This document shows positions 40,848 to 42,327 of a DNA stretch of 64,000 nucleotides, in pieces. Position 1 is the stretch's first letter. Each line of letters starts with the position of its first letter. The notes below the pieces were generated by a model that saw nothing but the letters and a program-made list of their open reading frames with translations, was not told the DNA's origin and made no database searches. Origin of the DNA: Escherichia phage garuso; the sequence record MN850566.1; one strand, written 5' to 3'. A program made the position numbers and the translations under genes.

Positions 40848-40925
40848 GGGAGATTGACGGTAATTGGTAAACCTACCATCCTTAGAAGTTGGTGTTTGAG
40901 GGTTCGAATCCCTTGTCTCCTACCA
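40848..40925 (+). tRNA. tRNA-Leu (anticodon TAG), short variable arm
   Basis: Acceptor GGGAGAT/GTCTCCT, A73, loop CTTAGAA, T-arm GAGGG-TTCGAAT-CCCTT, CCA encoded; D region irregular in my fold. Confidence 0.55.
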
Positions 40926-40932
40926 AATTAAT

Positions 40933-41008
40933 GCAGGTGTAGCAAAATGGTTATGCGGCTGACTCTTAATCAGTAAGACGATGGGTTCAATTCCCTCCAC
41001 CTGTACCA
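40933..41008 (+). tRNA. tRNA-Lys (anticodon CTT)
   Basis: Acceptor GCAGGTG/CACCTGT, anticodon stem GCTGA/TCAGT with loop CTCTTAA, CCA encoded; close paralogue of tRNA-Lys(TTT). Confidence 0.65.
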
Positions 41009-41014
41009 AAAAAT

Positions 41015-41090
41015 GGGGTCATAGTTTATATGGTTAAAATTCGAGTTTTGCAAACTTGGGAACTGAGTTCAATTCTCAGTGACTCCACCA
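41015..41090 (+). tRNA. tRNA-Ala (anticodon TGC)
   Basis: Acceptor GGGGTCA/TGACTCC with the G3-U70 wobble pair, anticodon stem CGAGT/ACTTG with loop TTTGCAA, T-arm CTGAG-TTCAATT-CTCAG, CCA encoded. Confidence 0.75.
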
Positions 41091-41096
41091 ATTAGT

Positions 41097-41171
41097 GCAT
41101 CCATAGTTTAAACGGGAAAATTACAGTCTTCCAAACTGAGGTTGAGGGTTCGATTCCCTCTGGATGCTCCA
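41097..41171 (+). tRNA. tRNA-Gly (anticodon TCC)
   Basis: Acceptor GCATCCA/TGGATGC, loop CTTCCAA, T-arm GAGGG-TTCGATT-CCCTC, CCA encoded. Confidence 0.7.
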
Positions 41172-41178
41172 AATTAAT

Positions 41179-41254
41179 GCTCCTATCGTATAATTGGCTA
41201 TTACGGTTGCCTTGTAAGCAACTTATCAGGGTTCGAATCCTTGTGGGAGCACCA
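41179..41254 (+). tRNA. tRNA-Thr (anticodon TGT)
   Basis: Acceptor GCTCCTA/TGGGAGC, anticodon stem GTTGC/GCAAC with loop CTTGTAA, T-arm CAGGG-TTCGAAT-CCTTG, CCA encoded. Confidence 0.75.
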
Positions 41255-41350
41255 ATTTAGAGGTCAAGTGAAAGACCGCTTTGAGTCAACTGAAGACCGT
41301 AACAAATTCCACGGAGTTGAGTTAGCGGCACAACTTCAGACCTCTTTCAC

Positions 41351-41425
41351 ACTCGCTTAGTTTATATGGTAAAACATCACCCTTACAAGATGAAGAAAAA
41401 GGTTCAAGTCCTTTAGTGAGTACCA
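41351..41425 (+). tRNA. tRNA-Val (anticodon TAC)
   Basis: Acceptor ACTCGCT/AGTGAGT, D-arm GTTT…AAAC, loop CTTACAA, T-arm AAAGG-TTCAAGT-CCTTT, CCA encoded. Confidence 0.7.
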
Positions 41426-41426
41426 T

Positions 41427-41504
41427 GTTCCAGTATCCCAATTGGCAGAGGATGCAAGCTCAAACCTTGTATTAGTGACGGTTCGAATCCGTCTTGGAAC
41501 ACCA
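41427..41504 (+). tRNA. tRNA-Leu (anticodon CAA), short variable arm
   Basis: Acceptor GTTCCAG/TTGGAAC, A73, Leu-type D-arm (TCC-CAATTGGCAGA-GGA), anticodon stem GCAAG/CTTGT with loop CTCAAAC, T-arm GACGG-TTCGAAT-CCGTC, CCA encoded. Confidence 0.55.
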
Positions 41505-41509
41505 ATTTT

Positions 41510-41585
41510 GCAGGATTAGTTCAAATGGATAGAGCAACAGTCTACGAAGCTGTTAATAGGGGTTCGAATCCCTTATCCTGCGCCA
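41510..41585 (+). tRNA. tRNA-Arg (anticodon ACG)
   Basis: Acceptor GCAGGAT/ATCCTGC, D-arm GTTC…GAGC, anticodon stem ACAGT/GCTGT with loop CTACGAA, T-arm AGGGG-TTCGAAT-CCCTT, CCA encoded. Confidence 0.7.
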
Positions 41586-41604
41586 ATTTAAAGAGGCTAT
41601 TTAG

Positions 41605-42162
41605 ATGAGATATTTGAAGTATGCTTCATGGATTTTCTTAGCTTTGTTAGAGCCATTTGCAGCAATCTTAGCAGTTATCTTAGCACCTTTTGTAGTTCCA
41701 TTCTACAGTGAGAAGAAAGGACACTTACCTTTCGGATTCAGATGGATGGAGACATATGACAACCCAATTGATGGTGATGAAGGTCACGTTAAAAGATGGG
41801 CTAATATTAGATGGATTGGTAAACTAGGTGTCTACATGCAAAGAGTCGGATGGCTCTGGAGAAACAAAGCTTATAACTTCTCTTACCATGTATTAGGAAG
41901 AGATGTAAAAGATGTTACTAAGTGGAAAGGTAATATCAACGTAAGTTCTGACCCTGAAGATAATCAGACAGGTTATCTACTAATGTGGAACAGTAATGCT
42001 TGGGGATTATTCGCTTTTATCCCATCAATTAAAATCTTTGGTAAACAATTTTACTGGAGAATTTATATTGGATGGAAACTAAAAAGTGTTGTCCCAGAAG
42101 AAAGAGCATTCTCAAGGGAAAGAGTTATGTTGGCATTCTTTATTCATCCACTGAGAAAGTAA
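41605..42162 (+). CDS. Membrane protein (185 aa) inside the tRNA cluster
   Basis: Track ORF; hydrophobic N-terminus (WIFLALLEPFAAILAVILAPFVVPF); flanked by tRNA-Arg and tRNA-Gln. Confidence 0.5.
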   Translation: MRYLKYASWIFLALLEPFAAILAVILAPFVVPFYSEKKGHLPFGFRWMETYDNPIDGDEGHVKRWANIRWIGKLGVYMQRVGWLWRNKAYNFSYHVLGRDVKDVTKWKGNINVSSDPEDNQTGYLLMWNSNAWGLFAFIPSIKIFGKQFYWRIYIGWKLKSVVPEERAFSRERVMLAFFIHPLRK

Positions 42163-42170
42163 AGATTTAA

Positions 42171-42246
42171 AGGGGATTAGTTTACAAGGTTAAAACCTCG
42201 GTCTTTGAAATCGAAGAAGTTGGTTCAATTCCAACATCCCCCGCCA
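42171..42246 (+). tRNA. tRNA-Gln (anticodon TTG)
   Basis: D-arm GTTT…AAAC, anticodon stem TCGGT/ATCGA with loop CTTTGAA, T-arm GTTGG-TTCAATT-CCAAC, CCA encoded; 1-72 mismatch. Confidence 0.7.
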
Positions 42247-42248
42247 AT

Positions 42249-42327
42249 GCTCCATTACTCCAATTGGCAGAGAGGCCAGACTTAAAATCTGTGTTATGTA
42301 TCGGTTCGAATCCGATATGGAGTACCA
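42249..42327 (+). tRNA. tRNA-Leu (anticodon TAA), short (7-nt) variable arm
   Basis: Acceptor GCTCCAT/ATGGAGT, A73, Leu-type D-arm (CTC-CAATTGGCAGA-GAG), loop CTTAAAA, T-arm ATCGG-TTCGAAT-CCGAT, CCA encoded. Confidence 0.55.

Follow-up and report, generated by a model that had tools for sequence, protein, structure and literature searches.

How should three tRNA-Leu genes without a long variable arm be understood in a phage of Escherichia, and are they leucine transfer RNAs (tRNAs) at all? The genes, with the anticodons UAG, CAA and UAA, lie in a tRNA cluster of Escherichia phage garuso (MN850566.1), of which one stretch of 64,000 nucleotides (nt), here called the window, was analysed. A preliminary description made from the letters alone had left two options, that they are non-canonical leucine tRNAs still charged by the host enzyme, or that one or more of the anticodons had been wrongly assigned. 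Our analysis indicates that the three genes probably encode functional type-I leucine tRNAs, which would be charged by the host's leucyl-tRNA synthetase (LeuRS) and would read leucine codons of the phage.

ARAGORN placed the genes exactly where the preliminary description had seen them (starting at 40848, 41427 and 42249) and with the same anticodons, and since ARAGORN, Rfam and a covariance model specific for the family all agree on genes and anticodons, the option of a wrong anticodon is refuted. The general tRNA model of Rfam, with a gathering score of 29, gave 40.0 bits for the UAG gene, 44.0 bits for the CAA gene and 47.5 bits for the UAA gene. The variable loops were delimited by two independent routes, a parse by hand with the T arm and the acceptor stem as anchors and an alignment to the covariance model, and the two agreed on UGUUU (5 nt, 40893-40897) for UAG, AUUAGU (6 nt, 41471-41476) for CAA and GUUAUGU (7 nt, 42293-42299) for UAA, the same 5-7 nt that had been estimated beforehand. 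A mis-folded long arm was found in none of the genes, and a hidden long arm or another register of the anticodon was ruled out by the two alignments. Type-II tRNAs have a variable arm of more than 10 nt that forms a stem-loop, and loops of 5-7 nt lie outside this class; all three genes have the type-I architecture, a loop of 4-7 nt that ends in U48 within a cloverleaf of 7/3(+1)/5/5 bp. They share a 7-bp acceptor stem, a 5-bp T stem, the T loop TTCGAAT and a leucine anticodon in a 7-nt loop with U33, and the discriminator A73, which had been noticed earlier, was seen by both routes. Single-sequence minimum-free-energy folds gave a near-cloverleaf for the CAA gene only and none for the UAG and UAA genes; such folding is uninformative at the size of a tRNA and comparative analysis was relied on instead.

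The D arm of the CAA gene is UCC-CAAUUGGCAGA-GGA, with U8 A9, a C13-G22 pair and a bulged A, and that of the UAA gene is CUC-CAAUUGGCAGA-GAG, with U8 A9, a 3-bp stem and a C13-G22 pair, so that the Leu-type D arm described for these two genes, a 3-bp stem around CAAUUGGCAGA, was indeed found. In all three genes an A is bulged between the 13-22 and 12-23 pairs, with U13-A22 in the UAG gene in place of C13-G22. The D region of the UAG gene had been called irregular, and this is explained by one extra nucleotide 5' of the anticodon, a bulged C; the covariance-model fold runs A10-U25, the bulged C, G-C, G-C and then U13-A22. Further peculiarities are C38 in the anticodon loop of the CAA gene, a G1.U72 wobble and a C27.U43 mismatch atop the anticodon stem of the UAA gene, and in the UAG gene a G1.U72 wobble, a U30.U40 mismatch in the anticodon stem and A37, where the host has G37.

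The comparative analysis is based on viral contigs of IMG/VR, which were scanned for a Leu-type D loop and a Leu anticodon loop with short spacing to the T loop; at least 120 loci were found. Among 159 unique short-armed viral tRNA-Leu sequences from the listed loci, A73 and U48, neither of which was part of the search pattern, are each present in 158, and variable loops of 5, 6 and 7 nt occur in 131, 19 and 6 of the sequences, respectively. An alignment of 96 viral sequences with less than 85% mutual identity was used to test a cloverleaf whose D stem has 3 bp and whose variable loop has 5 nt. In this alignment 98.0% of stem cells are paired, double changes occur in all four helices, and the covariation score is 1.04, compared with 0.24 for shuffled alignments (0 of 500 reach the observed score) and 0.14-0.20 for slid controls. 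Positions T8, A14, A15, G18, U48, T54, T55, C56 and A58 are invariant.

Among the columns that this cloverleaf leaves unpaired, mutual information revealed one extra pair, between position 13 and the nucleotide that stands between two As after G18G19Y20. This 13-22 pair is C-G in 54 of the 96 sequences, G-U in 23 and another standard pair in 7, and it is unpaired in 12; the A that follows position 22 is invariant and bulged before position 23. The pair is found in 127 of 159 short-armed and in 19 of 53 long-armed viral Leu tRNAs, and in E. coli leuW, leuX and leuZ the positions are unpaired (A.G or G.G). It also covaries with position 46. Ordinary class I tRNAs have a 13-22-46 base triple. As the 13-22 pair is typical of the short-armed type and covaries with 46, the short-armed type appears to have a rebuilt, class-I-like core, a conclusion drawn from covariation and not from a solved structure. 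With a covariance model derived from the same alignment, the UAA, CAA and UAG genes scored 70.8, 69.7 and 59.4 bits, above the other 22 tRNAs of the window, the best of which was tRNA-Cys with 57.4 bits; CAA and UAA thus lie at least 12 bits above any other. The E. coli Leu tRNAs score 56-62 bits with this model.

Can such tRNAs be leucylated by the host? The leucine identity set of E. coli consists of A73, A14 (with U8), A15-U48, G18G19 and A20a, together with the contacts G18:U55, G19:C56 and U54:A58 (PMC9976931, PMC6614811); leucine identity depends neither on the anticodon nor on the long arm, and variants without both arms stay active (PMC9976931). U8, A14, A15, U48, G18G19 followed by YA, the T loop UUCGAAU and the discriminator A73 are present in the UAG, CAA and UAA genes, that is, the nucleotides of the core recognised by LeuRS (U8-A14, A15-U48, G18G19/A20a, U54/U55/C56/A58) are seen, and the tertiary pairs between them are predicted to form. 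A precedent is provided by the T5-like phage OSYSP (MF402939.1), whose entire genome holds just two tRNA-Leu genes, UAG and UAA, both of 77 nt and short-armed, the UAG gene being a clear homologue of that in the window. With a tRNA-Leu(CGA) derived from MF402939.1, recoded E. coli is reported to read TCG as leucine (PMC13596443), and a second laboratory found the viral leucyl-tRNAs of the earlier study to be translationally active (PMC12269064 Fig. S6). The link to OSYSP comes from the methods text of PMC13596443 and from PMC12269064, neither of which contains the tRNA sequence, a gap that is covered by both OSYSP Leu genes being short-armed. Because the OSYSP-derived tRNA decodes as leucine and both OSYSP genes are short, a short-armed phage tRNA-Leu appears to work with the E. 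coli machinery. From gene structure, conservation, covariation, identity nucleotides, codon usage and distribution, all of which are observed directly, we infer charging of the window tRNAs by E. coli LeuRS and their decoding in infected cells; the identity set, the covarying family and the OSYSP precedent lend good support to the suggestion of non-canonical Leu tRNAs charged by the host enzyme.

In 54 open reading frames (ORFs) of the window, leucine is encoded by TTA (27%), CTT (28%), TTG (14%), CTA (11%), CTG (15%) and CTC (5%). In E. coli CTG makes up about half of the leucine codons and CTA about 4%, and the leucine codons favoured by the phage are served by minor tRNAs. The codon use fits the usual role of phage tRNAs in codon supply. 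We propose that the three tRNAs would mature by transcription and processing of the cluster, with CCA already encoded, and would be charged by host LeuRS through A73 and the D/T tertiary core, ignoring the anticodon and the arm. The UAA tRNA would then read UUA and UUG, the CAA tRNA UUG, and the UAG tRNA CUA and CUG, possibly also CUU and CUC via U34 wobble, giving the AT-rich phage its own supply for leucine codons that are much commoner in its genes than in those of its host. The short arm itself would be an inherited trait of a widespread tRNA-Leu lineage associated with phages and Actinomycetota, its loss being tolerated for Leu and not for Ser or Tyr. Indeed, the Ser and Tyr tRNAs of the same cluster are long-armed (Table 1), as had been described. 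Bacterial tyrosyl-tRNA synthetase (TyrRS) reads the long arm. For seryl-tRNA synthetase (SerRS) the long arm is the main determinant, according to papers on the MenT3 toxin and on class II tRNA evolution. Ser and Tyr would thus stay long and Leu could be short because LeuRS alone of the three class II synthetases needs no arm.

The distribution of the short-armed type extends well beyond the window. BLAST with the window genes found short-armed tRNA-Leu in Erwinia phage Hena2 (Kolesnikvirus; CAA 77 nt, AAG 78 nt and UAA 77 nt) and in the Seunavirus phage EspYZU15. Enterococcus phage EFDG1 has a short-armed UAG gene, annotated as 74 nt and called as 76 nt by ARAGORN, which adjoins a long-armed UAA gene, and a Mycobacterium prophage has short-armed UAG and CAA genes of 76 nt each. 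Partial matches are annotated as tRNA-Leu in Xanthomonas, Rhodococcus and Myxococcus phages and are unannotated in an Aeromonas phage; these are matches only and give no arm lengths. As a side observation, ARAGORN also called a transfer-messenger RNA with the tag peptide AKNEELLAVA* within the tRNA cluster of EFDG1, next to its short-armed tRNA-Leu(UAG) (4303-4650 of locus L004), where the record has no feature.

In the first IMG/VR scan, ARAGORN called at least 172 Leu genes of 74-80 nt and at least 54 longer ones in the listed loci; all but three of the Ser genes at these loci have 84-95 nt, and the Tyr genes are almost all long. A second viral scan was picked on a G73 tRNA motif and is therefore blind to Leu; it gave 112 new loci, eight shared loci being omitted. 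Among the loci listed there are 11 short-armed and 34 long-armed Leu genes, all 10 parsable short-armed ones show A73, U48 and the Leu-type D arm, and the Ser (86-95 nt) and Tyr (82-91 nt) genes are all long. The data suggest that about a quarter of viral tRNA-Leu genes are short-armed, a rough estimate from the listed loci. When the Leu pattern was applied to bacterial contigs, one genome per species, the matches listed were mostly single, isolated genes of Actinomycetota without encoded CCA, in Nocardia, Mycobacterium, Gordonia, Rhodococcus, Amycolatopsis, Corynebacterium, Bifidobacterium and relatives of Arthrobacter, with a D arm UA-GCC-CAAUUGGCAGA-GGC-A and variable loops such as CCAGU or ACAGU. 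A minority of the bacterial matches stand in clusters of 9-26 tRNAs and are likely phage or prophage DNA. The CAA gene, used as the sole blastn query against 5,426 complete E. coli genomes, gave no match. The statement that bacterial tRNA-Leu is normally long-armed therefore holds for E. coli but fails for Actinomycetota, and does not apply to a sizeable fraction of phage tRNA-Leu.

At the level of gene content, the short-armed type is the only tRNA-Leu of two major coliphage groups, the Felix O1-like and the T5-like phages. By their D-arm signatures, the window holds two sub-lineages of it, because the CAA and UAA genes bear the actinobacterial-type signature (U8 A9, an NCC/GGN stem, C13 and GGCAGA) and the UAG gene that of the T5-like subtype (U8 G9, an AUG/CAU-type stem and GGYAUA).

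Several points weigh against functional leucine tRNAs in the window. The OSYSP precedent concerns the tRNA of another phage with an engineered anticodon, and mass spectrometry in that work could not separate the isobaric Leu and Ile (PMC13596443). The type-I tRNA-Leu(CAA) of Streptomyces coelicolor was reported not to be a substrate of E. coli LeuRS, an enzyme said to charge type II only (PMC6614811), so that not every short-armed tRNA-Leu is a substrate. The loops of the CAA and UAA genes, with 6 and 7 nt, exceed the family mode of 5 nt, and the first viral scan was itself selected on a Leu pattern, so that frequencies taken from it are rough. The remaining points concern the UAG gene, for which the family model is a weak test as its score is only about 2 bits above that of tRNA-Cys; the gene is labelled a pseudogene in some records, e.g. 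Si3 and phiR2-01, and it deviates by its bulged D stem and the U30.U40 mismatch.

It might therefore be asked whether at least one of the genes, most likely UAG, is a pseudogene in decay or makes an RNA that resembles a tRNA but does not decode, for instance a decoy for nucleases or a signal for processing of the polycistronic tRNA transcript. Apart from the pseudogene flag raised by some annotation pipelines and the two deviations, this would agree with the Rfam score of UAG, the lowest among the class-I-sized tRNAs of the cluster, and with the single-sequence folds of UAG and UAA. The alleles of the gene, however, tell otherwise. The anticodon stem is CCAUC/GUUGG in the window, UCUCG/CGAGA in Felix O1 and VpaE1 and CCUCG/CGAGG in Si3, and LF110P4 has C-G in place of U-A at 13-22; across these alleles compensatory changes are found at 27-43, 29-41, 31-39 and 13-22, preserving the anticodon stem and the 13-22 pair. 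The bulged D-stem base varies freely (C or U) among Felixounavirus alleles. The U30.U40 mismatch is shared by the homologous UAG genes of OSYSP and EspYZU15, which have regular D arms, while the neighbouring pair 29-41 covaries, being A-U in the window and G-C in those two phages. With stems that are intact save for single mismatches, compensatory changes and an acceptor stem, T arm, A73 and CCA that are all intact, and with its retention in about 350 records, the gene does not have the features of a tRNA pseudogene. Because the alleles fit the fold with compensatory changes, the UAG gene, odd as it is, is best described as structurally constrained and not decaying, and the scores of CAA and UAA with the family model are far from those of other tRNAs; we consider decay or a non-decoding role very unlikely.

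A different alternative accepts functional tRNAs and explains the missing arm as an adaptation, either against immunity systems and toxins that target tRNAs or for discrimination between self and host tRNA-Leu; a short-armed tRNA-Leu would escape enzymes that dock on the arm and would still be charged by LeuRS. Phage tRNAs are known to differ from those of the host and to evade anticodon nucleases (PMC10264068, PMC13056530), the MenT3 toxin docks on the long variable loop, and the anticodon loops are unlike those of the host, with C32 and, in the UAG tRNA, A37 for G37. Moreover, as all three window genes and both OSYSP genes are short-armed, leucine decoding of the phage could run without host tRNA-Leu. 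On the other side, no defence system is known to target tRNA-Leu via its arm, MenT3 has no preference for tRNA-Leu, and in 34 of the 114 loci listed for the first viral scan Leu tRNAs with short arms stand beside long-armed ones. In Actinomycetota, moreover, this design is a normal single-copy chromosomal tRNA, so that an arms-race explanation is unneeded. The arm may have been lost neutrally or under selection, and we regard this adaptation as unlikely. Also speculative, and unlikely, is the wider proposal that short-armed tRNA-Leu is a mobile, phage-spread design in which arm loss was selected for escape from defence or toxins, or for safety in multiple hosts by avoiding confusion with Ser or Tyr; if true, about a quarter of viral leucine tRNAs would be an unrecognised counter-defence or host-range device and not a mere codon supplement. 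The least likely alternative is that tRNAs with Leu anticodons are charged with another amino acid, in codon reassignment or deliberate mistranslation. The class I architecture and the indifference of LeuRS to the anticodon mean that identity is unproven by the anticodon alone, and the 5' acceptor strand of the CAA gene, GTTCCAG, is the same as that of the phage tRNA-Glu. Yet the D arm is of the Leu type, almost every member of the family has A73 and A15-U48, SerRS and TyrRS would find no long arm, and the anticodons misfit synthetases that read them; an Ala-like identity was rejected as G3.U70 is absent from all three genes. In addition, the tRNA derived from one OSYSP short-armed Leu gene inserts Leu (or isobaric Ile) in E. 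coli, and the leucine codon usage of the phage is ordinary for an AT-rich genome. Taken together, type-I leucine tRNAs that supply phage codons remain the preferred interpretation.

The three genes belong to a cluster of 25 tRNA genes (Table 1), in a region that is 97-99% identical to Felixounavirus (Felix O1-like) phages such as MET-P1-301, VpaE1, HY02 and wV8, and the annotations of Felix O1 and phage nataliec list the genes in the same order. Many of the matching phage records already annotate 'tRNA-Leu (x3)'. The three Leu genes recur in nearly identical form in about 270-350 phage records, and are thus not there by chance; the UAA gene is at least 99% identical in 215 records, the CAA gene is 100% identical in many, and both are identical in Felix O1. 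A Pfam scan of the two conserved ORFs embedded in the cluster found DUF7338 and DUF7217 only, and no tRNA-related enzyme.

Table 1. Location of the tRNA cluster of the window, its short- and long-armed tRNA genes and the embedded reading frames.
Feature	Coordinates	Strand	Description	Basis
tRNA cluster	38045-43522	+	25 genes, including the three Leu genes	ARAGORN, Rfam
tRNA-Tyr	38604-38691	+	88 nt, long arm	
tRNA-Ser(UGA)	40502-40591	+	90 nt, long arm	
tRNA-Leu(UAG)	40848-40925	+	78 nt with encoded CCA; anticodon 40883-40885	ARAGORN, Rfam, parse, type-I Leu covariance model
tRNA-Leu(CAA)	41427-41504	+	78 nt with encoded CCA; anticodon 41461-41463	ARAGORN, Rfam, parse, type-I Leu covariance model
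DUF7338 ORF	41605-42162	+	185 aa, function unassigned	Pfam scan
tRNA-Leu(UAA)	42249-42327	+	79 nt with encoded CCA; anticodon 42283-42285	ARAGORN, Rfam, parse, type-I Leu covariance model
DUF7217 ORF	42551-43348	+	265 aa, annotated elsewhere as putative membrane protein	Pfam scan
tRNA-Ser(GCU)	43350-43442	+	93 nt, long arm	

Some side observations concern the cluster and its relatives. HNH endonuclease genes lie inside the cluster of Felix O1 and nataliec at spots that are tRNA-only in the window. Phage Si3 (KY626162.1) carries a hybrid Leu gene (5001-5079 of locus L007), made of the 5' part of the CAA gene (GTTCCAGTATCC...) and the remainder of the UAA gene, with the junction inside the D loop CAATTGGCAGAG common to both; this implies a deletion of about 0.8 kb that removed Arg(ACG), the DUF7338 ORF and Gln(UUG), and the chimeric acceptor stem has 6 of 7 positions paired. 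The strand GTTCCAG is common to tRNA-Glu(UUC) (38129-38206) and tRNA-Leu(CAA), with the 3' strands CTGGAAC and TTGGAAC, respectively, and this sharing could reflect chance, common descent or recombination between tRNA genes of the cluster. The record of Staphylococcus phage SA1 (GU169904.1) contains stretches 100% identical to the window Leu tRNA genes, that of Campylobacter phage A132 (MG065664.1) has a 95.8% match to the tRNA-like element described below, and Campylobacter-named records also matched a 2-kb query from the cluster. The SA1 and A132 records probably include contaminant or mislabelled Felix O1-like sequence.

The cluster also holds an unannotated tRNA-like element on the plus strand at 40181-40262, which was missed by ARAGORN and scored 31.7 bits with the Rfam tRNA model. 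Its acceptor stem has 7 bp, CCA is encoded and the T arm is normal; the anticodon arm bears the invariant loop CUUCUAA, with the anticodon UCU (Arg AGA/AGG). About 4 nt take the place of the D arm, and about 22 nt, which may contain a small hairpin, separate the anticodon and T stems. Its GC content is 59%, that of the genome 39%. There is no other tRNA-Arg(UCU) in the cluster, yet AGA makes up 41% of the Arg codons. Copies with 100% identity are present in Felix O1, Si3 and nataliec, and the unrelated phages 121Q, Sugarland, KB57, phi92 and a Vibrio phage have homologues, which show an invariant GUAUCUCA...CGUUAAYCGWGUAAYUGGA core and differ by compensatory changes in their acceptor and anticodon stems. 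Most records leave the element unannotated, but REP8 calls it tRNA-OTHER and 121Q tRNA-Leu; it may be an unusual tRNA without D arm and with a long variable region.

What is already known is that such genes exist, as they are annotated in many records, and that type-I tRNA-Leu occurs in mitochondria and Streptomyces. No description of short-armed tRNA-Leu in phages was found in the open-access literature searched, including reviews on non-canonical tRNAs, phage tRNAs and class II evolution, the older T5 and BF23 tRNA sequencing papers lying outside this scope; the same literature does not describe its exclusive use by coliphage groups, its commonness in viral contigs and Actinomycetota, or the 13-22 pair with the bulged A. 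A current review states the opposite generalisation (PMC9976931), and PMC6614811 treats Streptomyces as the sole bacterial exception and E. coli LeuRS as type-II-specific. The data presented here point the opposite way to the latter, as short-armed Leu genes are frequent in viral contigs and are standard chromosomal genes in many Actinomycetota, which extend its single Streptomyces tRNA-Leu(CAA). They form a natural set of cases in which to ask how LeuRS manages when the arm is missing, how a tRNA core is rebuilt (13-22 covarying with 46) and why phages prefer the design. They also bear on the biocontainment of recoded genomes, where such a phage tRNA-Leu is a working part, and the short-armed type explains the occasional pseudogene labels from annotation pipelines.

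Among known systems, the type-I tRNA-Leu(CAA) of S. coelicolor (PMC6614811) and the Actinomycetota genes resemble those of the window in their short loop, mostly of 5 nt, U48, A73 and U8 A9. The T loop is canonical in both groups, and the actinobacterial D arm NCC-CAAYUGGCAGA-GGN, with C13-G22, is matched near letter for letter by the CAA and UAA genes. The latter differ in lying in a phage cluster, in having an encoded CCA and in their loops of 6-7 nt, and the window genes must work in a host with long-armed Leu tRNAs (three were checked). In T5-like phages (OSYSP; BF23 and T5 relatives) the Leu tRNAs are likewise short-armed members of coliphage clusters with A73 and encoded CCA, of 77 nt and with a 5-nt loop. 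Between the UAG genes of OSYSP and the window the identity is about 84%, and both have U30.U40 and the loop CUUAGAA, but the D arm of OSYSP is regular, AUG-GAAUUGGCAUA-CAU with G13.U22, whereas the window UAG gene has the extra bulged nucleotide; the CAA and UAA genes are of another D-arm subtype (A9, C13-G22) than the T5-like.

The E. coli K-12 counterparts leuW (UAG), leuX (CAA) and leuZ (UAA) have the same anticodons, A73, A15-U48 and presumably the same synthetase. Their D region, a 3-bp stem with the 11-nt RAAUYGGUAGA, matches that of the phage CAA and UAA genes in length and almost entirely in sequence, and G1.U72 is common to leuZ and the phage UAA tRNA. The host tRNAs differ in their size of 85-87 nt, a variable arm of 13-15 nt and G9, compared with the loop of 5-7 nt and the paired 13-22 of the phage, and in G37, where the phage UAG tRNA has A37. 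Animal mitochondrial tRNA-Leu also has a short loop and its identity rests on A73 and A14 (PMC9976931), but it is described as floppy, its anticodon branch being partly unfolded, and has a mitochondrial LeuRS of its own (PMC6614811, PMC9976931), whereas the phage tRNAs have G18G19, the T loop UUCGAAU and full stems.

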